A DNA stretch of 14,363 nucleotides from Candidatus Jordarchaeia archaeon (lineage in GTDB: Archaea > Asgardarchaeota > Jordiarchaeia > Jordiarchaeales > Jordiarchaeaceae): positions 1-14,363 of the forward strand of contig JAHQXB010000103.1 in the NCBI GenBank assembly GCA_029856435.1. Direction: 5' to 3'. Of the stretch, positions 271 to 14,127 are shown piece after piece. Position 1 is the first letter of the stretch; each line of letters begins with the position of its first letter. Under the pieces are notes generated by a model. That model worked only from the letters and a program-made list of their open reading frames with translations, was not told the DNA's origin and ran no database searches. The translations under genes and the position numbers were made by a program.

Positions 271-1845
271 CTAGTTGTATTGGGTGCATATGGTGAATTC
301 TATGCCGTGTTTCATTGTTCTCAGTTGCCACACTATTCCCTCAAGGAGGGTTCTTAGCGCAAAGTAGTCCGGGGAATCTTTGGATGGGTAGCATACATTT
401 ATTGTTGGGGTAACCAGCTTGGGGTCTTTTGTTACTGCTATGATTCTTCCCAAAAGGTGGATTGTTTCGAAGAAGCCCCCCATCATTACTGTTCTGAGGT
501 AGTTTCCTTTAGGCGATTTTGGAAGTTTACCAATTTTTGACTCTAATAGTTCCCGTGTTATTTCCAAAATTTTGAGGAATTTGTGTTCATAATTACTTTT
601 CCCATTTAGGGTATAGGTGTATATCGCTGTGGTTAAGAGGAGGATTTTTTCCGGGGATAGGGGGAGTTTCCATATTTCCTCTTCCAGTTCCTCCAGTGCT
701 TCTATGTTTCCCGTAAAATCCATATTTCGTATTAGCTCTATCAGGAACAAGTAGATGTTCTCAATCGTCTCAACATGTTTCAGATTTCTTCTCTCATACT
801 TGTTTATGAGCAGCCTAGCCAAATTTTCAAAAAGATTAGACAAAGGTTCCAGCTCAGGTTTCCGGTCACAATACTCCCACATCGAAACAATAACCTCATC
901 AATAGTTCTAGCAATATCATCCTCCTCCCCCAAGACATACGAAGAAACCTTCAGAATACTTCTACGATACGGTTCACCAGCTTCTGCGCTAAACCTCAAA
1001 AAATTGTAAAGGGAATCTATCAAAATAAAAGACTCATCACTCTCCCACTCAAAACGCTCACGCTTGAAAAAAATAGCCCCCCTCAAAACCTCTAAAACAA
1101 AGTTTTGCAATTCCCTTGGAGAATGCGAGTCCCTGCCAAGAAATAGCATATCGGAGAGAGTGCGATAAAGCCAACGTAGATCCATCATCAGCCCCCTATC
1201 ATAGAAAAAGTTCCTGAGGAACTCAAAGAATTCCCTGTAAAGCTCCCCTAGCTCATTTAGGCCTCCCATCCTGAGACAGTCGCCCAGTTCAGAAATCAAA
1301 ATAATTAGAGCCTCACTACTACACTCCTCCACCCCCCTCTTCACACGGGTAATCAGGTTCCGCCAATCATCTCTAGATTCAGCCACACTAATCATCATGC
1401 GAAAAAGCGCAATTTTTGCGTCAAGAAGAGCCCTCTCCTCAAACTCCAAATTAGGATAGTTTCTAAGCTTCTCAAAAATGCTTTTCGCCCTGTCAACTCG
1501 CTTTCCTCCCCACAATATGTCCGCCTCAGCCAGATTTAACAGAAACATGGACCAAAAAACACTACCATCCGGAGACATAAACCGCTCTTCACATTCTTCA
1601 AGCTTATCCAAAACATACTCCATTCGCCCACCCCTCACCCCCAAATAAACCAAAATAAGAGCAACCAAGGAGTAAATAACGAAAACATCACCATCCTCAA
1701 AACACCACATATCTAGAGACAGACCCCTAAGTAACTGCAATACAAACCCAAGCTCCCCCAATTCAGAAACATTCTCCTCAACCAACGAAGACAGAGAACC
1801 GTAGATTTCCCTCAAGAAAAACCGGATGGAATCACCACTTACCAT
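271..1845 (-). CDS. Hypothetical 524-aa protein, predicted mostly alpha-helical (TPR/solenoid-like), function unknown
   Basis: Long uninterrupted ORF rich in L/E/I/F/R with amphipathic helical periodicity; no catalytic motif recognised; TATA-like box about 25 nt upstream of the ATG. Confidence 0.8.
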   Translation of the reverse strand: MVSGDSIRFFLREIYGSLSSLVEENVSELGELGFVLQLLRGLSLDMWCFEDGDVFVIYSLVALILVYLGVRGGRMEYVLDKLEECEERFMSPDGSVFWSMFLLNLAEADILWGGKRVDRAKSIFEKLRNYPNLEFEERALLDAKIALFRMMISVAESRDDWRNLITRVKRGVEECSSEALIILISELGDCLRMGGLNELGELYREFFEFLRNFFYDRGLMMDLRWLYRTLSDMLFLGRDSHSPRELQNFVLEVLRGAIFFKRERFEWESDESFILIDSLYNFLRFSAEAGEPYRRSILKVSSYVLGEEDDIARTIDEVIVSMWEYCDRKPELEPLSNLFENLARLLINKYERRNLKHVETIENIYLFLIELIRNMDFTGNIEALEELEEEIWKLPLSPEKILLLTTAIYTYTLNGKSNYEHKFLKILEITRELLESKIGKLPKSPKGNYLRTVMMGGFFETIHLLGRIIAVTKDPKLVTPTINVCYPSKDSPDYFALRTLLEGIVWQLRTMKHGIEFTICTQYN

Positions 1846-1892: not shown

Positions 1893-2008
1893 AGGGGGTG
1901 ATGTAGAATTGTTCGGTTTCGCCTCAAAAAGGGGGTGTTTATAGTGCTTCTTTCACGATTTGGAGCCTTATTAGGGAGATGGAACCGAATAAATCTACGT
2001 CACCCCCT
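1893..2008. repeat. Imperfect 28-bp inverted repeat (arms 1893-1920 and 1981-2008) around a 60-nt loop
   Basis: Left arm AGGGGGTGATGTAGAATTGTTCGGTTTC versus reverse complement of right arm AGGGGGTGACGTAGATTTATTCGGTTCC: 24/28 identical. Confidence 0.85.
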
Positions 2009-2013
2009 CCATA

Positions 2014-2169
2014 CATAATCATTTGATCCTCCAAAAAAGTAGGCTTAACAGGGCTTCCCTCCAAATAAGCCTAAAAAACGGTAAGACCGGCAAACCCTGC
2101 ACACAATTCATGCCAACAAACCACATACTTAACGACAGAACCCCGGCAGCTTACAATAAAAACTCTTTA
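2014..2169 (+). repeat. Copy A of a dispersed ~156-bp inverted repeat (partner at 7059-7218)
   Basis: Manual alignment: core 2080-2131 matches the reverse complement of 7095-7146 at 47/52, including the exact 20-mer AACCCTGCACACAATTCATG (2093-2112 / 7114-7133). About 75-80% identity overall with small indels. Confidence 0.9.
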
Positions 2170-3239: not shown

Positions 3240-3301
3240 TTTCCAAAACAATAAATAGACCAAACCCCCCTTGCGAGAGAAAAAAATTAGGGGAAAACAG
3301 G

Positions 3302-4198
3302 ATGACCACCATCACACAACAAATCATAACCCCCCACCCCGAAGAAACACCCCAAAAAGAAGACATCCAATTCATAGTAAGAGGATACAGCTGGCGCCCC
3401 TTCCTAGGATTCACCCTACCACACCTAGACCTCCTAACACCCCAAGGACTGGGAAGCATCCCCCTCTTCGGAGAACACACCCTCACACTCACAAAAGAAA
3501 AATACTGCCTAGAATGCCAAAACCCCACAAAAGACACCCAATACTGCCCCCAATGCCAAAAGCTAGCCAAAATACAGAGACTACAATGCATAACCAAAGG
3601 AGCAGGAACACCCTACAACCAGCAGTGCAACCCAGAAAACCCACCCTGCAACTCACCCTGGGCCGCACAACACTGCCAGCAAGAGCACGTAATCTACATA
3701 GCAGGATTCGGAGAACTCTTCAAAGTAGGAGTAACAAAAACAGAAAGATGGAACACCCCAGACGGATACAAGTACCGACTAATAGAACAAGGAGCAGACT
3801 CCGCCACAGTACTCAGAGGAAACCTAAACCTGGCAAGCGCCCAAGAAACAGAACAACTCATAGCCGACGCCCTAGACCTAGAAACAAGAGTACCATTCGA
3901 ATACAAAGCAGAAGAATATGCAAATCCAAAAGGCCCCCAAATCCAAGAACTAAAAAAACTAAGCCAAGAAGCAGCAAGAAGATTCCATCTACACGAAGTA
4001 TGCATACTCAACCTAAACCAAGTATATGAAGTGCGCCCCCCACTCCCAGTAGACATAAACCTATGGCAGATCGAAAACCTAATTGGAAAAGTAACCTATG
4101 TTCGGGGAAACATTCTATACCTCCAATCCAACGGCTTACTCATAGCCCATGACCTCAGCTCTGCGAGGGGGAAGGGAATAATCTGCGAGGAGGACTAA
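3302..4198 (+). CDS. DUF2797-like Cys-rich (probable zinc-binding) protein, possible GIY-YIG/T5orf172-like nuclease
   Basis: 298 aa; C-x2-C-x9-C-x2-C, then C-x12-C-x6-C-x8-C-x3-H, followed by HVIYIA...FKVGVT...YRLIEQGA and C-terminal GKVTYVRGNILYL. I recognise this layout as DUF2797 from memory, not from a search. The stop is 3 nt before the cas1 start. Confidence 0.78.
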   Translation: MTTITQQIITPHPEETPQKEDIQFIVRGYSWRPFLGFTLPHLDLLTPQGLGSIPLFGEHTLTLTKEKYCLECQNPTKDTQYCPQCQKLAKIQRLQCITKGAGTPYNQQCNPENPPCNSPWAAQHCQQEHVIYIAGFGELFKVGVTKTERWNTPDGYKYRLIEQGADSATVLRGNLNLASAQETEQLIADALDLETRVPFEYKAEEYANPKGPQIQELKKLSQEAARRFHLHEVCILNLNQVYEVRPPLPVDINLWQIENLIGKVTYVRGNILYLQSNGLLIAHDLSSARGKGIICEED

Positions 4199-4201
4199 AA
4201 A

Positions 4202-5254
4202 TTGTTAATTGAAATAAACAGTCATGGCTCCTTCATAGGAAAAAAAGGACAATGCATAAAAATAACCTGCGCAGGCGAAAAACTCGCAGAAGTCCCAGTA
4301 GTCAAACTCACAGAAATAATAGTCTCAGCCTCCACAACCATATCCTCAGACGCCGTAAAACTACTAGCAGAAAACGGAGTACCAATACTATTCATGGGCG
4401 GAGGAAAACCAGTAGCCCTACTCCACGGCTTCTTCATGCATGGAACAGTCCTCACACGCAGAGAGCAAATAACCGCCTACGGAGACCAGAGGGGAACCCA
4501 CCTCGCCAAAGCCTTTGTAGACGCAGGAATGACCAACAAACACCGCCTCCTCAACTACTTCGCAAACAGCAGAAAACGCACCGACCCCACAACAGCAGAA
4601 AGCCTAGAAATAGCCACCCAAGAAATAAGGCAGGTACAGGAAAAACTCAGCACAATAAACGGACTAATCACAGAAAACCGCTACGAACTAATGGGACTAG
4701 AAGCAGAAGCCACCCGCATCTACTATCAAGCCCTAAGATTAATCCTTCCAGAAGAAATAAGGTTCCAGAGAAGGGAAAAAAGACCACCCAGAGATCCCTT
4801 CAACGCCGCCCTCAGCCTAGGATACACCATACTCAACAGCAGAGTGCTGGCAGCAGTAACCGCCTGCGGACTGGAACCCTTCGCAGGATTCCTACACGCA
4901 GACCGCTCCGGAAAACCCTCACTGGTACTGGACCTCTCAGAAGAGTTCAGGCAGCCAGTAGTAGACAGAACCGCCATAAGCATGTTCACCCAAGGAATAT
5001 TAACCCCAAAAGACTTCCAACACACAGGCAGTGGACTCCTATTCACAGAGGAAGCCAAGAAAAAATATATTGAAGCCCTACTCAAAAGACTAGAAGGCGA
5101 AGCAAAACCAGAAGAAGGCAAAACGCCGCTTGAAAACATGATTTTCCACCAAGCAAGAGAAATAGCCCGCTACCTCCTTGGAAAATCCCAATCCTACACC
5201 CCATACACCTTTGAGTGGTGGGGAACAACAGGAGGAGAAAACCACGATGAATAA
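4202..5254 (+). CDS. cas1: CRISPR-associated integrase Cas1
   Basis: 350 aa; ELMGLEAEATRIYY, RPPRDPFNAALSLGYTIL, GLEPFAGFLHAD, SLVLDLSEEFR with catalytic E/H/D present; TTG start with GAGGAGG SD inside the preceding gene. Confidence 0.98.
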   Translation: MLIEINSHGSFIGKKGQCIKITCAGEKLAEVPVVKLTEIIVSASTTISSDAVKLLAENGVPILFMGGGKPVALLHGFFMHGTVLTRREQITAYGDQRGTHLAKAFVDAGMTNKHRLLNYFANSRKRTDPTTAESLEIATQEIRQVQEKLSTINGLITENRYELMGLEAEATRIYYQALRLILPEEIRFQRREKRPPRDPFNAALSLGYTILNSRVLAAVTACGLEPFAGFLHADRSGKPSLVLDLSEEFRQPVVDRTAISMFTQGILTPKDFQHTGSGLLFTEEAKKKYIEALLKRLEGEAKPEEGKTPLENMIFHQAREIARYLLGKSQSYTPYTFEWWGTTGGENHDE

Positions 5255-5525
5255 CATTGTAACCTACGATGTGCCAGACGACAGACTAAGAGCAAAAATC
5301 GCCGCCAAGCTTTTTGGCTATGGCCTCAAAAGACTACAGAAAAGCGTCTTCATAGGAGAGATGAGTAGAAACAAGGCTGAAATGCTAGCCTTAGAACTGG
5401 AAGACCTAGTGGGAGGAGAACCTGCAGACATACGCATTTTCCCAATATGCGAAAAGTGCTTAGAAGCCCACATTGTGGTCTGCGAACTCCACGATATAAG
5501 TGAGGAGGAGGTAGTAATAACTTGA
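5247..5525 (+). CDS. cas2: CRISPR-associated protein Cas2 (start revised from 5178 to ATG 5247; 92 aa)
   Basis: IVTYDVPDDRLR and GLKRLQKSVF motifs; GGAGGAG SD at 5231-5237; overlaps the cas1 end by 8 nt. Confidence 0.96.
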   Translation: MNNIVTYDVPDDRLRAKIAAKLFGYGLKRLQKSVFIGEMSRNKAEMLALELEDLVGGEPADIRIFPICEKCLEAHIVVCELHDISEEEVVIT

Positions 5526-6121
5526 CCGTCTGGGAATGCGTGAGGCCCAGAATCATTTTCACAGCCGAAGACATAAGACAATACGGATACTGCAAAAGAA
5601 AACCCTACTTCCGCCACGTATTAAAAGCTAGACTCCAACCCTCAATCAAAATGTTGAGAGGCGAAAAAATACACCAAAAAACATGCAGAGCCAAAAGCAT
5701 AGAAAAAGAGGAAAACAGAGAAGTCTCACGCTACTACAACATTTATCTCTGTTCCGAGGCTTTGGGACTCGCAGCCATAATAGACTATTTCGAATATGAT
5801 GGCGAGAAAATAACACTGGTAGACGTAAAATCCGGCGCTGGAGCATCAAAAAACATATACGAAGGCTACTACCTCCAAATGGCCGCCTACGCCCTACTCG
5901 TAGAAGTCTGCCTAGACATACCCGTAAAAAGCGTACTGATACGCTACGAAGACGACAAAAAAGAAAAGCTTCTACAAATAGACTTCAAAGCAAAAGCCAC
6001 CGTAATCCAAATCCTAAAAAGGCTAAGAGAAATGGTGGAAAACGAAACAATACCACCACCAACCAGCAACCCCAAAAAATGCACAGACTGCGAAGCGTGG
6101 AAAATATGCAGAAGATGCTAA
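5522..6121 (+). CDS. cas4: CRISPR-associated Cas4 (RecB-like nuclease with Fe-S cluster)
   Basis: 199 aa; N-terminal YCKRK, G..IH, IIDY, VDVKSG, LQMAAY and C-terminal CTDCEAWKIC; TTGA overlap with the cas2 stop. Confidence 0.95.
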   Translation: MTVWECVRPRIIFTAEDIRQYGYCKRKPYFRHVLKARLQPSIKMLRGEKIHQKTCRAKSIEKEENREVSRYYNIYLCSEALGLAAIIDYFEYDGEKITLVDVKSGAGASKNIYEGYYLQMAAYALLVEVCLDIPVKSVLIRYEDDKKEKLLQIDFKAKATVIQILKRLREMVENETIPPPTSNPKKCTDCEAWKICRRC

Positions 6122-6458
6122 ATTTGGAATTTTTGAGGAATATCCTCTAGTGGCAAGTGGTTGTTCAAACTACAAAAAAGTGTAATATAATAATAAGGTT
6201 TGATGTGAATGTAATAGTTTTTCATTAGAATGTTTAGTTAATTTAAAGTTTTTTAAGGAAGAAATAATAAATTAAGTTAAGGGGTAATCCTCTTTAAACT
6301 AATGCGATTGTATAAGGTGGGATATAGATTTCTCATTAATTTTTTCCTAAACTTATCCTTCTCCGGGGTTCATTTTAGGCTTCTTTTCCCAAAAAAAGGC
6401 GGAAAAAACCATATTTTCTGGAAGCGAAAAGGAAAAAATTAATGGGAAAGTCTATAGA

Positions 6459-6867
6459 ATGACAGATAAAAAATTATCTCTTGAAGATATTGCTTCTGGC
6501 CCCTCAATTCGCCGCATTGCTGATGTTTTCCATTATCTAGTGGTAGTTGCTAGAATCAAACAATATTACTATGAGCTGAAATTTGTTCGCGACGGCAAGC
6601 TATTAGAACTTATGGGTAAAGCTCTCAGAGATATTGATACACTGAGTAACGATAAGAACATGAAAAAGGAGATTTCGAAACTTGCAACGAGACGAATACA
6701 AAACGGAAGCACTAAGAATTCTAACAGACATTTCAAGGGCGATATCTACGAGAAACATAAATCTATTTAATAATGATGCCATGTTTCACATAATAAGAAT
6801 AGACAACATCAAAACAATACCTAGGGAGACTGTTTTTAAAATACAAACGAGCCTAAAAAGCGAATAA
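6459..6867 (+). pseudogene. Probable frameshifted small helical gene, tentatively Csa5/Cas11-like
   Basis: Two overlapping ORFs (6459-6770, 6682-6867) join into 135 aa if one base is removed near 6664-6700. The N-terminal ~45 aa share a hydrophobic register with the Csa5 at 12922-13353 by eye only. Confidence 0.4.
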
Positions 6868-7058
6868 ATCCATACCAGAAATATTCCAATTCAGAGTTAT
6901 TAAGCCACTCTGTTGTTTTAAAAGTTTATTTTTGACCTATTGGTATATGAATTTGGCTCAGATTTTATTATCTCTGCAGGAGTTGATAGGTAAGGAAGTT
7001 TAGTGAAAAAGAAAAATGAGAAAAGCTGTTCCAGAGGAGTGATGTTAATCCCAGTTAT

Positions 7059-7218
7059 TAAAGAGTTTCTTTTGTAGACTTAGGAACCTTGTCGTAAGTA
7101 TGTAGTCTGTTGACATGAATTGTGTGCAGGGTTAGCCAGTCTTACCATTTTTTTGGGCTTTAAATTTGGAAAAAAGCCATGTAAAGTCTCCTTTTTTTGA
7201 GAGGATCAAACGATTATG
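7059..7218 (-). repeat. Copy B of the dispersed inverted repeat (partner at 2014-2169)
   Basis: Reverse complement begins CATAATCGTTTGATCCTC (copy A: CATAATCATTTGATCCTC), contains the 47/52 core and ends TACAAAAGAAACTCTTTA (copy A: TACAATAAAAACTCTTTA). Confidence 0.9.
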
Positions 7219-7465
7219 CGTAGAAGGGAAGCCACATACTTAAGACGAGAGCCCTAGACTTACAAAATTATGTTTCCCGACACGTATCACACATAATGTG
7301 TGGAACGAGCGCTATTTTCATCGCAGATACTACCTCTTCCTCACCAAGAAAAAAAGCTCAAGAAAAAGCTAAAACCAATTTTGTAAGCCTCTTTTGCGGA
7401 AACGTAGAAATGTATGGAAGGTGCTAATTCTAGGCATCTAGTGTTATGGATTCGTTGTGTGTTAT

Positions 7466-7477
7466 AAAAAGAAAAAA
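7466..7477 (-). terminator. Putative oligo-T terminator of the interference operon
   Basis: TTTTTTCTTTTT on the minus strand, 18 nt after the cas8 stop; archaeal terminators are U-tracts. Confidence 0.4.
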
Positions 7478-7495
7478 GTATATCTTTGAGACAGA

Positions 7496-8641
7496 CTAAA
7501 GCGGTATTGCTTCTGCTAGTCTTCTACCTTTATAAACTATCCAACGTTCGTCGTCTTCTGTTTTCCCTCCTAATAATAGGGATGTTTCAATTCTTGAGGC
7601 TCTTAGGAGTAGTTCGTCTCGTTCTTTTTCATTTCCTTTTTGGAGTGCGAGGAAAAGTAGTTTGACTATTTCTATTGCTCGTTCTCTGATTTTAAGGTTT
7701 TCAGCTTTTGCAGGAGTGAGGGCTTTTATTAGTAAATCTTTTAGGTAGCCCTCTAATTTTTTGTCATCCTTGATTTTCTGGAGTTTTTCGCCTGATCTGG
7801 TTATGAAGGAACTTATTGGCAGGTGGTAGGATACCCCAATGGACGCTGGTTTGGACCCTGAAGGATCCTTCATGCTTAAGAGGAATAAGTCAGGCGTATT
7901 TTTGGGTAGGATTAGTGACAACCAGAGCATTACGGCTTCTTCAGGTTTCAATCCAGGAATTATTGAGAATTTTCCTTTCTCCTTTATTGGGCTCCATAGG
8001 GTGTATATTTCCGAGTATATTGAGCCTATGTCGTAGGGTAGGAGGTGTACTGTGTGGTATTCTGTTTTGCCTTTTTGTATGTCGTATGGTGCTCCTCCTA
8101 GCCGTGAAAATATGTATCCCGCGATAAGTGTCATGAGATAGTCAATGTTTAGTTTTATTTCGAGGCGTTCTTTTCCTTTCATGAAGGGTGCTCTCGTGAG
8201 TGTATAAAAGTCGGGTTTAAGTATGCTCATAGGTATGAAATCGCCGGTTCCGAATGATGAGAAGGCGGCAGTTAGCTTTTGGGGGTTGTACTTTCTGAGT
8301 TCCTGTGCATAAGTTTTTAATGCTTCCACAAAGGTGCTTCCCTGTGGGAGATTAAGGCTTTTTTGAAATGTTCCGAAGGTTTTTTTCTCGTTGCCTGTTA
8401 ATGGTATGTCAATTTTGCGGTCTTTAGTATATTCTTCAAGTCTTCTTGCAGCACGTTCCATTGTTTGAGCTAGAACCTCATTTACGTTTACTGCTTTTGT
8501 TTCTATTATGGCTTTGTCCCCTTGCAGCCTTAGGGATTTAATTTCAGAGCTTAGTGTAGCGTTTAGGAATGTTAACATTAGGTATCTTAGTATACCTACT
8601 GGCGGAACAACTATTTCTAAATAAGTAGGACTCGACATCAT
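7496..8641 (-). CDS. cas8a2: Type I-A large subunit Cas8a2 (Csa4-like)
   Basis: 381 aa; last gene of a csa5-cas7-cas5-cas3'-cas3'' operon, the position of cas8a2 in Thermoproteus-style I-A loci; FIPMSILKPDFYTLTRAPF resembles the Csa4 conserved block; ATGA overlap with cas3''. Confidence 0.75.
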   Translation of the reverse strand: MMSSPTYLEIVVPPVGILRYLMLTFLNATLSSEIKSLRLQGDKAIIETKAVNVNEVLAQTMERAARRLEEYTKDRKIDIPLTGNEKKTFGTFQKSLNLPQGSTFVEALKTYAQELRKYNPQKLTAAFSSFGTGDFIPMSILKPDFYTLTRAPFMKGKERLEIKLNIDYLMTLIAGYIFSRLGGAPYDIQKGKTEYHTVHLLPYDIGSIYSEIYTLWSPIKEKGKFSIIPGLKPEEAVMLWLSLILPKNTPDLFLLSMKDPSGSKPASIGVSYHLPISSFITRSGEKLQKIKDDKKLEGYLKDLLIKALTPAKAENLKIRERAIEIVKLLFLALQKGNEKERDELLLRASRIETSLLLGGKTEDDERWIVYKGRRLAEAIPL

Positions 8642-9411
8642 TTAATCATCTCCTTAAGTTCTTCCAAAAACTTTCTTCTTGATTTATTGACTTGAAGTCC
8701 CCTCTTGGAATATGCATCTATATTATCTGCTATTAAGAGAGGGTTCATTATGAGGACATAGAGTTTAGGCCAATGATATTGATTCATACTAATGCGTTTG
8801 AAATAGTCACGTAACCAGGTTTGGAAATTATTAATGTCTTGACGGCTAATTTCGATAGCTTTTTTGATAGCTTCTATGGGAGTACCGTACTTCTCAAGAA
8901 TTTTTAGGTTGTTATTCTCGCAGATTTGGCTTTTTGCAATTTTGGTTAAATCGTCTAGTAGGGTTGATATGTAGGGTAAGGCGGTAACTATTTTACTAAT
9001 TGCATCCTTGAAGGCATGATGATGGTTGAGGACACTTAGAGTTAGGAGAAGTTTTTCTTCATTACTTAAATTTCCGTTATGTTCTCCATATTTGTAGCAA
9101 GCTACTGCTGAAAGTATTTCATGATGTTGAAAGCCTACTTCTTTTTTACATTGGCATTTTTCATCGAAGTTTCTTTGGAAGTACATGTAGGCTTTTCCCA
9201 AATCGTGGAAGAGTACCGCTATTTTTATAATTTTTTTAATTTTATCCTCGTTAAGGTTTATTTTTCCCCCGGAGGCTGCCCGTAATCTTCTTGAAACCAC
9301 GCTAGCGTAGGTTGGATTTTTTTCCAAAAATCTGTCCGCAATTTGTATACATCCCTCTACATGGTCTATTAGTGATTGTCCAATAAAAGCACATGGCTTC
9401 ACCAAAATCAC
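8638..9411 (-). CDS. cas3'': Cas3'' HD nuclease (stand-alone)
   Basis: 257 aa; DHVEG, LFHDLGKA, HHEILSA, NHHH and ADNIDA HD motifs; GTGA overlap with the cas3' stop. Confidence 0.93.
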   Translation of the reverse strand: MILVKPCAFIGQSLIDHVEGCIQIADRFLEKNPTYASVVSRRLRAASGGKINLNEDKIKKIIKIAVLFHDLGKAYMYFQRNFDEKCQCKKEVGFQHHEILSAVACYKYGEHNGNLSNEEKLLLTLSVLNHHHAFKDAISKIVTALPYISTLLDDLTKIAKSQICENNNLKILEKYGTPIEAIKKAIEISRQDINNFQTWLRDYFKRISMNQYHWPKLYVLIMNPLLIADNIDAYSKRGLQVNKSRRKFLEELKEMIK

Positions 9412-11051
9412 CCCACGTAACCTGTCTCCTTATCTATCTCCTCCACGACAATGCCTTCAAAATCCCTATCAATAAGACCCAGACTGAGAGATGGTTCGTT
9501 AAGCAGTCTGTTAAGCTTGTTGGTGTCTAGTTCTTCAACTTTTCCATCTCTGACTACCTTCGCTGTCCTCCTTAGAGCCCTTTTTGCCATATCCTCAGAT
9601 AATCCCACTGCGTAATCCAGATAGTTACTATTAGCTAAATCCTTGCTGTCGAAAGCCGCAACTATACCAAAGGAATCCGTTAATCCTTTAAATGTCCTCA
9701 AAATTTCTGCGGCGATATCTTTGTCTAAAACTGGATACATATCAAGCATTTCTAGAGCCTTCATTAGGTCTTCCTCAAATCTTGGAGGCTCCCTTTTGCC
9801 ATAAATTTCAAGGTTCATAATGTTTTGAAGTTCAAGTTCAATTTCTGGCCTTGGGCGGTAATCGCCTCTGCTTATTCTCTTAATGCAAAGTAATGTATCC
9901 TTAATTACGTCACTGTCGTATACTCCGCGTTCAGATAGTGGATTTACAATTAGAACTTCTCCTTCGTCGTGTCCGGGTTTTCTGGCTACTCTTCCCATTC
10001 GTTGAATGAGTCTATCGGGAGGACAAATCTCGCTTATCAGTACGTCGAAACTTGCGTCTATTCCCGCCTCGACGACCTGAGTTGCTATTAGTAGCTCAGC
10101 TTCCTTCAGTTTTTCTGAATTTCTCTTTTTCACATTTTCAGGAAGTCTTCCGTGGAGCAACAGTGGGCTGAGATGCTTTAGAGCATTGTATATTTCCACC
10201 GCATTTTTCACTTCATTTATTACTGCTAAAACCCTCTTTTTCTGTTTCGTTTTTTCAACAATCAAATCAACAATACTCTCGGGGCGAAAATCTAGTACTA
10301 GTTTCTTCTTAGATCTGGTTTCCTCAAATTTGTCCCTCAATGGTTCATATTTAATTTCCTTCTTTTTGATTCCATATTTGTCTAGTTCTGAACCTATGGA
10401 TCGAACTAGTTTATTGGGCATTGTAGCCGACATAATAATAATTGGGACGCCCGTAAGCGCCAGTAAAACCATTGCCTTTATGGCTGTGCCAAGATTTTTT
10501 GCTTCTTCTTTAAAAGTTGCCATAGGTGAAAAAAGGTGGAACTCGTCAAACACTACCATTGAGGTGTATATGTTACCTCTCGGAAATTCAAAATGTGCAA
10601 CATTATGCTTAAGTAGTTTTGCTAACTCATAGGCTGGTGCCTTAAACAGGTTCAACATGAAAGTGTCCAATGTGACAATTACACATCTTTTGGCAAAGAA
10701 AGGCGAACCGGGATGACCCATATGTTGAGCTCCAATGTTCTCAGCGCCTAATTTAAGCTTTTTGAACCAATCAATGAGACGTTTATATAGGTCGTCAACA
10801 ATGCTTCTCATGGGAAGCACATGAATTACTTTAGAAAAATATTGGTTTCCGCCTATTGCTGCCTCTGCCAGGGCAAGGGTCATGGCTGATTTTCCATATC
10901 CAGTTGGAAGCTCCATAATAAGAACATTTGGCTCTCCCGCCTGCAAGAGCTCTTCCAACGCTTCCAACGATTCACTTATGGCAGGCCTCGACTCCCAATT
11001 AAGCCTTGAGCAAACTGACTCGTAATGTTGGACTAATGTTTCCAGGTTCAT
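9408..11051 (-). CDS. cas3': Cas3' SF2 helicase
   Basis: 547 aa; ELPTGYGKS (Walker A), DEFH, MSAT, LLHGRL, ATQVVEAGID, QRMGRVAR; no fused HD domain. Confidence 0.96.
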   Translation of the reverse strand: MNLETLVQHYESVCSRLNWESRPAISESLEALEELLQAGEPNVLIMELPTGYGKSAMTLALAEAAIGGNQYFSKVIHVLPMRSIVDDLYKRLIDWFKKLKLGAENIGAQHMGHPGSPFFAKRCVIVTLDTFMLNLFKAPAYELAKLLKHNVAHFEFPRGNIYTSMVVFDEFHLFSPMATFKEEAKNLGTAIKAMVLLALTGVPIIIMSATMPNKLVRSIGSELDKYGIKKKEIKYEPLRDKFEETRSKKKLVLDFRPESIVDLIVEKTKQKKRVLAVINEVKNAVEIYNALKHLSPLLLHGRLPENVKKRNSEKLKEAELLIATQVVEAGIDASFDVLISEICPPDRLIQRMGRVARKPGHDEGEVLIVNPLSERGVYDSDVIKDTLLCIKRISRGDYRPRPEIELELQNIMNLEIYGKREPPRFEEDLMKALEMLDMYPVLDKDIAAEILRTFKGLTDSFGIVAAFDSKDLANSNYLDYAVGLSEDMAKRALRRTAKVVRDGKVEELDTNKLNRLLNEPSLSLGLIDRDFEGIVVEEIDKETGYVG

Positions 11052-11885
11052 TCAGCCAACCCCACTGGCTATTAGAATCTCCCCATCGACTTCAAATGCC
11101 CTCCCCCTAGTCAATTCAACCGTAACAAGCGTAGAGCTGATTGGCGTTTTAGTACCTGGAATTATGTATTCCTCAAACCGTGCACTTGCTTCTCTACCCC
11201 AACCACCACTCCAAAACATTTCCATGTAATATCCACCCTCTACAACGCTACCCAGAACTGCGGGAAAGTAATACCTAGTTTTCAATTTTCTATCCTTAGT
11301 GGGCGTGGCTTCAGACAACTTTACATCAATTACAGAAATTATGGACTCTCTGCTACCAATTCTAGTCATTTCCCAAGCCGCTTTAACTAATTCATTTTCA
11401 AAATTTCCATCTACGACTTTACTCATTGAGTCATCTATGAGAAATGCTGCAGTTAGTACCCCACTAGGATAGAAAACCTTACCCACTGGAATGGCTCCTG
11501 TTCTGAATTTCATCGTATACCTTCTTCCACCAGCAAGTATTTCATCCTCTTCGCTTTTTGTTGTTTCGTGAAAGAGGATAGTATTGTACTTGCTTAAATC
11601 CTCCCAAATTATTGCAATGTTATCCAGATATGCAGATGCACACACCACGTACTTTTCTATTACCATCGCGGGGCTCAGAATACTATTTTTCTCAAGCTTA
11701 ATTGTCTCTCCCTTTATTTGTTGCCCATCTAACTTTAAGACCCCTTTTTTAACTAGAGGATAGGCGAGGGCCCCTATGAGAGTGGTTGGAGGAGGGAGAG
11801 GGGTGGCGCTCTGATACTTACTGGTTCCAGGAGACCTTATCCAAAAACCCCAGTGGTACTCTGCTTTAACTTTCAGAACTAGCAT
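11052..11885 (-). CDS. cas5: Cas5 (type I-A Cas5a)
   Basis: 277 aa; YHWGFWIRSPGTSKYQSATPLPPPTTLIGALA and RIGSRES motifs; stop directly abuts the cas3' ATG. Confidence 0.93.
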   Translation of the reverse strand: MLVLKVKAEYHWGFWIRSPGTSKYQSATPLPPPTTLIGALAYPLVKKGVLKLDGQQIKGETIKLEKNSILSPAMVIEKYVVCASAYLDNIAIIWEDLSKYNTILFHETTKSEEDEILAGGRRYTMKFRTGAIPVGKVFYPSGVLTAAFLIDDSMSKVVDGNFENELVKAAWEMTRIGSRESIISVIDVKLSEATPTKDRKLKTRYYFPAVLGSVVEGGYYMEMFWSGGWGREASARFEEYIIPGTKTPISSTLVTVELTRGRAFEVDGEILIASGVG

Positions 11886-11906: not shown

Positions 11907-12920
11907 TTAACCCTTCTTCATTGTCATATCCACAAGTTTGCTCATAAAGTCTTCCGGGGTTTTGGTTACCTCCACACCCTCCACCCCTTCGGCAGCGTCT
12001 TCCTTGTCGAATGCCAGAGTAGAAACTGTGACATTACTCTGTAACTTTTTCATTACGGTTGAGAAAGTTTGCGCTCTTTTAACAGACTCTCCGATGAATT
12101 TTTTAGAATTTCCAGGACAAACAATAAAGCTTGCATTAGGCGAGTATGCTGCTATAGCTGATAGGGGTTCAATGTTTGGCAGGAACCTACTTCTCTTAGC
12201 ACCACACTGAAATTGAGTTAGAAATTGCGCTAAAGCGGACAATGCTCCCACCACTCGAGCGTCCCTTTGCTTTGCAAGCTCACTCTCATCTTTTTGATTC
12301 CTCTCTCCAAATTCTGTTGAGGGAACAGATATTCTAGAAATATCCAGATTAAAAGTGAATGTGTAAACGGCAGATCCCACTTCAACATTGTAGGGTTGTT
12401 GGTACTGTTTCATAGAAGAGGAAGCATATCTCACTTGAAACTGAGACTCCAAAGCTGCGGCTTCAGTTTCAAAAACTGCAGGAAGCATATACCCAACTTG
12501 AAAGGTGGACGTCCTCTTTATAGGATAAGCTCCTGCATAAAGGAAACCGCCCACATCACATACATAGTCCTTGAGCATAACCTGTACTTCTGCGTTCCTT
12601 ATCCCGTTCTCATTCTCAGGGATAGAAATTCCAGCTTCCTTTATGAGTTTATCATCCGTGAATTTTAAAAACTCGCCGCGCTCCGAGTATGGCGAAAGGG
12701 GCAGTTTTCTTTTCTTTGCTTCCTCCACTAGGTAGAACTGATATGCATGGGCAAGTGATTCTCCTGAAATTGCTGGCACAAATCGAATGGAGTAACTCCC
12801 ATCCTGGCCCGTGATTATGGGAGCAGTTCTGTGTCTTACTAAGTTGCCTACAGTCTCAACACTGTTAAGACTTTCCAAATTGACTAAAAGCCTAAAGGCT
12901 ATGCTTAGAAATCCTTCCAT
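11907..12920 (-). CDS. cas7: Cas7 (Csa2/DevR family) backbone subunit
   Basis: 337 aa; LNSVETVGNLVRHR, VPAISGESLAHAYQ, DVGGFL, KRTS and GAKRSRFLP motifs of I-A Cas7. Confidence 0.96.
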   Translation of the reverse strand: MEGFLSIAFRLLVNLESLNSVETVGNLVRHRTAPIITGQDGSYSIRFVPAISGESLAHAYQFYLVEEAKKRKLPLSPYSERGEFLKFTDDKLIKEAGISIPENENGIRNAEVQVMLKDYVCDVGGFLYAGAYPIKRTSTFQVGYMLPAVFETEAAALESQFQVRYASSSMKQYQQPYNVEVGSAVYTFTFNLDISRISVPSTEFGERNQKDESELAKQRDARVVGALSALAQFLTQFQCGAKRSRFLPNIEPLSAIAAYSPNASFIVCPGNSKKFIGESVKRAQTFSTVMKKLQSNVTVSTLAFDKEDAAEGVEGVEVTKTPEDFMSKLVDMTMKKG

Positions 12921-12921
12921 A

Positions 12922-13353
12922 TTATGCCTCCTTTTCCTCCCTCTTAGAGAGGGCTGATGCTACCATAGACATGGCATAGCTTGCCACACTTCGGGCTATT
13001 CTTATGTTTTTTGAAGCGTCTTCAAGGAAGTTTTTAATCTGCTCATCGTCTGCTAGGTAACCAGAGACTGTATCTACTACTCTAGTGTTATCCTTTTTTG
13101 AAACAATTTTTACCACTTTTAAGCCTTCCTTTTCCTTATGGGGCTCCTCAAATATTCCCTCCGCTCCCTCTGTTTCAATACTTCTCCTCAGAAGATTTTC
13201 AAGGATTCGAGAGTTTTCATAGAGTGCTCTGCTTACACTATCGTAGGATAGGGCATTGGCTATACGGTCTATGATAGAATAGCTCCTAGAAGCTATGCCA
13301 ACTGCTGCGAGTGATGTGGCTACACCTCGATATTTTTTTAGGTCTAAACTCAT
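12922..13353 (-). CDS. csa5: Csa5 (Cas11) small subunit
   Basis: 143 aa; IIDRIANALSYDSVSRALYE motif; first gene of the operon, 1 nt before cas7; AAGGTGA SD upstream. Confidence 0.85.
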   Translation of the reverse strand: MSLDLKKYRGVATSLAAVGIASRSYSIIDRIANALSYDSVSRALYENSRILENLLRRSIETEGAEGIFEEPHKEKEGLKVVKIVSKKDNTRVVDTVSGYLADDEQIKNFLEDASKNIRIARSVASYAMSMVASALSKREEKEA

Positions 13354-13485: not shown

Positions 13486-14127
13486 ATGATGAAAATGATA
13501 CTAATAGTCACACTCGGCTTCGATGAAAAATTCGCATTAAGAGCCATAATGCGAAGAGGAATAAAAGAAGGAGACAAACTCCTAGCCCTACTACCCCAAA
13601 AAGGAGATCCAAGAGGAGAAAAAGCCTTCCTAACCCTGAAGCAAACATTACTAAACATGCTTCCAAAACTAGAAGTGGAAAAAGCCGAAATAAACATTCA
13701 AGATCCATACGGAGCAATTTCAAACCTCAGAAAAGTACTGAAATCCTTAAGCCTAAAAGGTGAAGAACTAATACTAAACATCAGCGGAGGACAAAGGTTA
13801 CTCATAATCGAAACACTCGCAGCCGCCCTAAGCCTCAATCTAGGAAACCTAAAACTTGAGCTGGAAACAGAAGACTCATCATTATATTTCACAACCTCCC
13901 TAGACATCATGCTCCCAATGGATCTAGACAAATTAGATTTAGATATACTCAAAAAAATAGCTGAAAAAGGTAGCGTAAAATTAACAGACCTACTAGATAA
14001 AATAGAAATCCCAAAAACAACCCTATGGAGAAAACTAAACAGACTAGCAGAACTAAAATTACTCGAAAAAGACAAAGACAACTACATCCTAAGCGACCTA
14101 GGGCGAAGCAGAGTCGAACCCACCTAA
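13486..14127 (+). CDS. csa3: Csa3 CARF + winged-HTH transcriptional regulator
   Basis: 213 aa; LIVTLGFDEKFALR and ILNISGGQRLL CARF motifs; C-terminal wHTH (LTDLLDKIEIPKTTLWRKLNRLAELKLL). Start may be 13486, 13489 or 13495. Confidence 0.93.
   Translation: MMKMILIVTLGFDEKFALRAIMRRGIKEGDKLLALLPQKGDPRGEKAFLTLKQTLLNMLPKLEVEKAEINIQDPYGAISNLRKVLKSLSLKGEELILNISGGQRLLIIETLAAALSLNLGNLKLELETEDSSLYFTTSLDIMLPMDLDKLDLDILKKIAEKGSVKLTDLLDKIEIPKTTLWRKLNRLAELKLLEKDKDNYILSDLGRSRVEPT

Follow-up and report, generated by a model that had tools for sequence, protein, structure and literature searches.

A cas1-linked DUF2797 protein heads the adaptation operon of an Asgard type I-A CRISPR-Cas locus: a predicted accessory factor of spacer acquisition

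The capture, trimming and orientation of prespacers in CRISPR adaptation are poorly understood beyond a few model systems, and Cas4, Csa1 and DnaQ-type exonucleases are central to these steps. In Sulfolobus, the adaptation cassettes have the gene order csa1-cas1-cas2-cas4 (10.1101/486738; PMC9456107). Type I-A adaptation in S. islandicus needs both Cas4 and Csa1, which set the protospacer adjacent motif, the 3' motif, the spacer length and the orientation (10.1101/486738), and the csa1-cas1-cas2-cas4 operon of this organism is activated by Csa3a (PMC9456107). The window analyzed here is a whole contig of 14,363 bases (JAHQXB010000103.1, assembly GCA_029856435.1) from the genome of an Asgard archaeon, Candidatus Jordarchaeia archaeon. 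It carries a type I-A CRISPR-Cas locus, the adaptation operon of which begins with a gene for a DUF2797 protein of 298 amino acids (aa), P0001.

The family of this protein has already been catalogued next to adaptation genes. The supplement to the Science paper by Altae-Tran et al. (2023; PMC10910872) contains UAS-13, "Acquisition (DUF2797)", with the gene uas13A and 6 loci. It also contains UAS-44, labelled "Acquisition (DUF2797 large zinc finger protein)", which comprises 8 loci and has proteins of 433 aa. The printed uas13A reads, in a by-eye comparison only, like the alignment row L045:4423-5358, which falls in the cas-linked clade described below and matches P0001 with an E value of 2e-21 and 27% identity over 233 aa. 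Judging from these entries, P0001 belongs to the same family and has the same tie to adaptation modules, whereas the UAS-44 proteins are longer than it. The association of DUF2797 with adaptation had therefore been catalogued, as far as the entries themselves go without an analysis. In the main texts of the papers searched, nothing linking DUF2797 to CRISPR was found; the link sits in that supplement. An earlier reading of the window from its letters alone (the original prediction) was therefore wrong in supposing that the family had not been described as Cas-associated. The present analysis adds how widespread the clade is in Asgard archaea, with members in 38 of 400 genomes or about a third of the Cas1-bearing ones, and how it splits from non-linked paralogues. 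It also adds the slot and the Cas1 kinship that the clade shares with csa1 cassettes, the way in which it co-varies with Cas1, and where its conserved residues fall on a GIY-YIG-like core.

P0001 is an intact member of this catalogued cas1-linked DUF2797 clade (uas13A/UAS-13). On balance, it is best explained as a predicted accessory DNA-binding nuclease of spacer acquisition with a Csa1-type role, an explanation held with somewhat more confidence than doubt.

The linkage to cas1 was surveyed in 400 Asgard genomes, 107 of which have Cas1. The Pfam DUF2797 model matches 134 of the 400, mostly through paralogues distant from cas1, and a clade profile, A1, was built from the cas-linked DUF2797 proteins. 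Its scores over the survey set are bimodal: 41 full-length matches reach 131 bits or more, and no other match exceeds 94 bits; P0001 scores 355 bits. The 41 clade copies are spread over 38 genomes and 13 families. Comparison with the Cas1 coordinates puts 36 of them directly upstream of cas1 and in the same orientation; another four, which all come from a single genus of family f10, are next to cas1 but divergent from it, and one is at a contig end. In other words, 40 of the 41 adjoin cas1, and the remaining copy is cut by the end of its contig. From the stop of DUF2797 to the start of cas1, the distance ranges from -41 to +134 nt and is mostly between -7 and +15 nt. Close homologues (63-91% identity), of which the closest are labelled Candidatus Freyarchaeota or Jordarchaeum, precede cas1-cas2-cas4 on every contig found, none of them lying away from cas1, and one homologue cluster bears a Korarchaeota/Thermoproteota label. 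On metagenome contigs from outside the genome set, which belong to sub-clades without a verified member, cas1 is adjacent as well. The effector modules beside the cassette vary, being of type I-A in the window, of type I-D in L003, L059 and L062, and of another type I in L001.

A tree built from 145 DUF2797 proteins contains a branch, supported at 100 in the Shimodaira-Hasegawa-like approximate likelihood ratio test (SH-aLRT), that parts all 20 verified cas-linked copies from all 36 non-linked Asgard paralogues. The gene thus belongs to a distinct cas1-linked clade, of the kind the original prediction had proposed to look for. Pairwise distances among the DUF2797 proteins follow those among the Cas1 proteins (r = 0.95, or 0.87 without same-genus copies; none of 2000 permutations reached the observed value in either case), a correlation that is counted as supportive only, as it is inflated by the relatedness of the genomes. 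The DUF2797 protein is predicted with good confidence to work in adaptation.

Some cassettes depart from the common layout. In family f10 (genus g21) and on two metagenome contigs, a variant cassette consists of an opposite-strand cas1, the DUF2797 gene, a gene for a 329-aa protein with a weak match to the Cas1 profile (E 5.8e-9), cas2 and cas4 (L065, positions 3959-8284; L066; G053:C173, G054:C56, G055:C8 and G056:C129). Another cas1-linked DUF2797 copy, G324:C113:3874-4752 (L043), contains an in-frame TAG and may be a pseudogene or the product of an assembly error.

In the window, the adaptation operon is composed of the following elements:
3302..4198, + strand: cas1-linked DUF2797 gene, 298 aa (P0001), first in the operon (PF10977, 57.9 bits; clade profile, 355 bits; on the cas-linked side of the SH-aLRT 100 branch)
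4187..4194, + strand: GAGGAGGA, a Shine-Dalgarno-like site for cas1 within the final DUF2797 codons (read from the sequence; putative ribosome-binding role)
4202..5254, + strand: cas1, TTG start, 350 aa (PF01867, E 4.5e-81; TIGR00287, 8.2e-85)
5247..5525, + strand: cas2, 92 aa, overlapping cas1 by 8 nt (PF09827, E 1.4e-17)
5522..6121, + strand: cas4, TTG start, 199 aa, overlapping cas2 by 4 nt (PF01930, E 2e-14; TIGR00372, 7.2e-27)
6130..6134, + strand: first T5 run past cas4, a candidate archaeal operon terminator judged from the T5 runs

The four genes are as tightly coupled as had been originally described. Between the TAA of the DUF2797 gene (4196-4198) and the TTG of cas1 (4202-4204) there is a gap of 3 nt, the Shine-Dalgarno-like site is found inside the last DUF2797 codons, and the two following junctions are overlaps. 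Within 3302-6121 there is a single T5 run (5311-5315), and seven are present in the 310 nt upstream of the operon. This pattern is compatible with one DUF2797-cas1-cas2-cas4 transcript, and from it we infer co-transcription; the DUF2797 gene is probably translated in step with Cas1. Contigs from hot-spring relatives came from two runs that are labelled metatranscriptomic but are probably DNA. One of these contigs, 1196 nt long and about 93% identical, spans positions 3294-4471 and includes the DUF2797/cas1 junction, but coverage of two genes by one contig does not establish a common transcript.

The original prediction had also taken a strong A/C bias at third codon positions as a sign that the four genes belong together. 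The bias itself is real, with a third-position A+C content of 0.89 in the DUF2797 gene, 0.87 in cas1, 0.69 in cas2 and 0.85 in cas4, against a genome mean of 0.53 (standard deviation 0.11; 1687 open reading frames), and the DUF2797 gene and cas1 rank 6th and 11th in the genome. It is not operon-specific. Orthologous cassettes of the same genus share it, and it is absent from those outside the Jordarchaeia-like relatives. Extreme values (0.82-0.93) are found in DUF2797, cas1 and cas4, and also in csa3, NuoH, NuoD, PurF, a glycosyltransferase and an FGGY kinase (contigs C162, C143, C139, C3 and others). As csa3 and housekeeping genes carry the bias and the cassettes of other families lack it, it is weak evidence for coupling, and its use as a sign of shared origin was rejected on the same grounds. 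It is a patchy property of the genome of the host lineage. The cassette with the Korarchaeota label has the opposite bias, with A+C values of 0.15-0.22.

The absence of csa1, which had been noted originally, was confirmed: no match to Csa1 was found in the window or in the genome, which is 97.8% complete. Among the surveyed genomes, Csa1 is present in 27 and is encoded directly upstream of cas1 in nine. No contig was found to carry both csa1 and a clade DUF2797 gene, and the genome G115 has one DUF2797 cassette and one csa1 cassette on separate contigs. The Cas1 tree unites all DUF2797-linked and csa1-linked Cas1 proteins in a single clade (support 100), separate from 11 other Asgard Cas1 proteins, and the csa1-linked ones form a single subclade (support 99) that is nested among the DUF2797-linked ones. 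One seeming exception, L104, was explained by its DUF2797 gene having been missed by the Pfam model. Csa1 (PF06023) is a Cas4-family PD-(D/E)XK nuclease, and P0001 is like it in its slot directly upstream of cas1, in its cas4-bearing operon and in its sister Cas1 lineage. Unlike Csa1, it has a GIY-YIG-like core, it has neither a sequence nor a fold relationship to Csa1, and its cassettes are also found with type I-D effectors. None of the Csa1, Cas4 and PDDEXK models in Pfam, NCBIfam and PADLOC matched P0001. The DUF2797 protein is therefore a positional analogue of Csa1, and the shared slot suggests that it is probably a functional analogue as well. That it specifically does the job of Csa1 is a possibility raised by the same analogy, and a doubtful one.

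Membership in the family, which the original prediction had worded as DUF2797-like, was verified with a hidden Markov model (HMM). The reading frame at 3302-4198 is intact, and PF10977 matches residues 60-277 over model positions 5-215 of 227 with an E value of 1.8e-15 and 57.9 bits (cut-off 25). NCBI annotates members of the family as "DUF2797 domain-containing" or "hypothetical". P0001 had no match in PHROGs or PADLOC, NCBIfam and PADLOC hold no model that names the family, and a search of the clade profile against PDB sequences returned chance-level zinc-ribbon matches only. Within the gene, three stretches of codons correspond to the conserved parts of the protein:
3506..3556, + strand: C4 zinc ribbon (C69-x2-C72 ... 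C82-x2-C85), all four Cys invariant in 40 clade members
3587..3676, + strand: second Cys cluster (C96, C109, C116, C125), each at least 90% conserved in the 40 clade members and lost in a few
3683..4015, + strand: GIY-YIG-like core, residues 128-238 (Y132, K141/G143, R159, E184, K202), from models with predicted local distance difference test (pLDDT) values of 88 and 92.8 and from fold-search ranking at low scores

The two Cys clusters and the motif that follows them, as first read from the sequence, are thus real and conserved across the clade. In the alignment of the 40 members, which are mutually 20-35% identical, the invariant positions are C69, C72, C82, C85, Y132, K141, G143 and K202, and conservation reaches at least 90% at C96, C109, C116, C125, R159, Q163, G164 and E184. 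The Cys sites would be expected to bind metal.

The AlphaFold2 model, built with the clade alignment, has a pLDDT of 88 and a predicted template modelling score of 0.85, and the core alone was modelled with a pLDDT of 92.8. The protein is predicted to consist of a small beta module formed by N- and C-terminal strands, the C4 zinc ribbon, the second four-Cys site and the GIY-YIG-like core. The core has the order beta-beta-alpha-beta-alpha, with strands at residues 129-136, 139-146 and 167-175 and helices at 156-163 and 177-191. In the models, strand 1 carries Y132 and strand 2 carries K141 and G143, and R159 and E184 sit on helices 1 and 2, respectively. In structures such as those of I-TevI and UvrC, the first two strands hold the GIY and YIG elements and the two helices the Arg and Glu elements, in that order. 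GIY-YIG nucleases were ranked at the top by an exhaustive aligner (VIA) for both models, with Z scores of 3.3-5.1 that are under the trust level of the tool: HIGLE (5.1, 4.7), Slx1 (4.7, 4.4, 4.3), I-TevI (4.2, 3.9) and the N-terminal domain of UvrC (3.7). A Foldseek search with the core only placed the UvrC GIY-YIG domain in the top five at an E value of 0.19, again under the trust level. The whole model found nothing in the PDB with Foldseek and returned DUF2797 alone from the ESM Atlas.

The core therefore resembles the GIY-YIG nucleases I-TevI, UvrC (N-terminal domain), Slx1 and HIGLE in the order of its strands and helices and in the placement of Tyr, Gly, Arg and Glu. Canonical members differ in that they keep the second Tyr and have no zinc ribbon with a Cys cluster and no beta module around the core. 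The T5orf172 branch carries K-[IV]-G as its second motif, and T5orf172 itself (PF10544) is nearly absent from Asgard archaea, being present in 1 of 151 genomes. A cryptic GIY-YIG fold in DUF2797 has been reported independently in a preprint (10.64898/2026.10.10.758204).

Other members of the family are found away from cas1 in Asgard archaea, where a non-linked paralogue follows an RNase E/G-family gene in family f8, follows a radical SAM gene in family f31 and lies beside a DHH/DHHA1 phosphoesterase gene in family f13. These non-linked loci are L013 (49-2283), L055 (4477-6844), L009, L028 and L052. Such neighbours hint that the entire DUF2797 family acts on nucleic acids. The housekeeping paralogues of Asgard archaea and bacteria resemble P0001 in their Pfam family and overall fold (template modelling score of 0.72 for a bacterial cluster of the ESM Atlas), but they lie on the other side of the branch with support 100 and do not adjoin cas1.

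If the favoured explanation is right, the DUF2797 protein would work alongside Cas1-Cas2 and Cas4 and would do there what Csa1 does in csa1-cas1-cas2-cas4 operons. Prespacers could be captured or trimmed by it, plausibly at the end left unprocessed by Cas4, and this would help to set spacer length and orientation. As a tentative extension by analogy, a GIY-YIG-type zinc-ribbon nuclease may have displaced the PD-(D/E)XK nuclease Csa1 in many Asgard archaea as the second end-processor of Cas1-Cas2-Cas4, trimming the non-Cas4 end of the prespacer. A complex prediction for a Cas1 dimer with DUF2797 residues 19-298, run with alignments, gave a score of 0.00, which is no evidence either way. The fold search also returned chance-level rows for PDB entries 9vj9 and 9vja ("Type I-A CRISPR integrase prespacer catching complex", April 2026), which would be the natural reference for the action of Csa1 or of its stand-in.

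Several observations weigh against this explanation. The fold similarity is weak (Z 3.3-5.1, best Foldseek E 0.19, probability at most 0.63), residues 120-250 had no match to the GIY-YIG, T5orf172 or MUG113 HMMs of Pfam at E values up to 10, the Tyr of the second motif is Lys141, and Lys202 appears to stand at the usual Asn position, so that catalysis could be lost or altered. The resemblance to GIY-YIG/T5orf172 proteins that was originally proposed therefore stands in topology, residue placement and top fold ranks, and is qualified by Z scores of 5.1 or less, by the missing HMM match and by Lys in place of the second Tyr; because of the scores under the trust level and the lack of an HMM match, the core is called GIY-YIG-like and the protein is not filed as a member. 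Kinship among the genomes inflates the clade counts as well as the distance correlation. Moreover, DUF2797 also heads I-D-linked cassettes, and since type I-D systems are not known to carry csa1 normally, a replacement of Csa1 is not the whole story. The proposal that the protein stands in place of Csa1 accordingly holds for the shared slot upstream of related cas1 genes and for the two genes never occurring on one contig, and falls short for the I-D cassettes. The two Lys residues also suggest a non-cleaving DNA-binding or architectural adaptation factor with a GIY-YIG-derived fold without catalysis, involved for example in leader or repeat recognition or in prespacer holding. A zinc ribbon with a small beta module would suit nucleic-acid binding, and the linkage to cas1 fits such a factor as well as it fits a nuclease. 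Against it, at least 90% of the clade members, proteins of 20-35% identity, retain each of Tyr132, Arg159 and Glu184, the last being the presumed metal ligand. Such conservation is more typical of an active site that has been kept, and a non-cleaving factor is considered rather unlikely. That the protein is an active nuclease is given about even odds.

Roles outside the acquisition machinery are less probable still. As the first gene of the operon and with its zinc-binding motifs, the DUF2797 gene might encode a transcriptional or post-transcriptional regulator of cas1-cas2-cas4, and a role with RNA is hinted at by one Asgard family, in which non-linked paralogues lie beside a gene of the RNase E/G family. 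The locus already has a likely dedicated regulator in csa3, though, and no helix-turn-helix or other known regulator domain was found in P0001 with Pfam. The DUF2797 and cas1 frames, which overlap or abut, suggest matched amounts of the two proteins, as would be better suited to a partner in a complex, and a regulator is judged very unlikely. GIY-YIG domains are common in homing endonucleases, which, together with the two dispersed-repeat copies that flank the cassette, would speak for a selfish or hitch-hiking gene upstream of cas1 that has no CRISPR role, such as a homing endonuclease remnant or an addiction element. Such a gene would hardly be expected to keep an unchanged position and orientation across 13 Asgard families, with copies 20-35% identical, or to co-vary in its distances with Cas1, no clade copy was found away from cas1 in the survey set, and the flanking repeat is not specific to the cassette. 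This alternative is regarded as highly improbable. An accessory nuclease of spacer acquisition thus remains the favoured explanation for P0001.

The repeat is about 130 nt long and dispersed, with at least 41 copies of 79-87% identity in the genome (e.g., L069-L075), and it could be an element similar to a miniature inverted-repeat transposable element or a structured RNA gene. Two inverted copies, at 2004-2138 (+) and 7090-7228 (-), flank a PIN-domain gene and the adaptation cassette. A mobile cassette bounded by the inverted repeat that the two copies form, at 2004-2131 and 7095-7228, was considered and rejected in view of the number of copies across the genome. The PIN-domain gene (2527-2922, +) lies just upstream of the adaptation operon and is preceded by an open reading frame of 87 aa (2241-2504, +), and the two resemble a toxin-antitoxin pair of the VapBC type. 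Two further open reading frames beside the cas genes have no Pfam or PADLOC match, one of 524 aa at 271-1845 (-) and one of 103 aa at 6459-6770 (+).

The remaining cas genes of the window are the following:
7496-8641, - strand: cas8a/csaX (Pfam; PADLOC Cas8a/CsaX, E about 3e-23)
8638-9411, - strand: cas3'' HD (Pfam)
9408-11051, - strand: cas3' (Pfam)
11052-11885, - strand: cas5 (Pfam)
11907-12920, - strand: cas7/csa2 (Pfam)
12922-13353, - strand: csa5 (Pfam)
13486..14127, + strand: csa3, with a CARF-like N-terminal domain and a winged helix-turn-helix, likely regulator of the cas operons (PF22662, E 9.4e-26)

Together, csa5, cas7 (csa2), cas5, the split cas3'/cas3'' and cas8a, as identified with Pfam and PADLOC, assign the locus to type I-A. 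Neither a CRISPR array nor cas6 was found in the 14.4-kb window.

The cas1-linked DUF2797 proteins are a family that is tied to cas1 in about a third of the sampled cas1-bearing Asgard genomes, yet has no Cas protein name. If the protein is an active GIY-YIG-like nuclease that stands in for Csa1, one member of the adaptation complex would clearly have been replaced by a non-homologous protein, and the family would need its own cas name and profile. It would also, if this is true, bring a third nuclease fold into CRISPR adaptation, next to those of Cas4/Csa1 and the DEDDh exonucleases.

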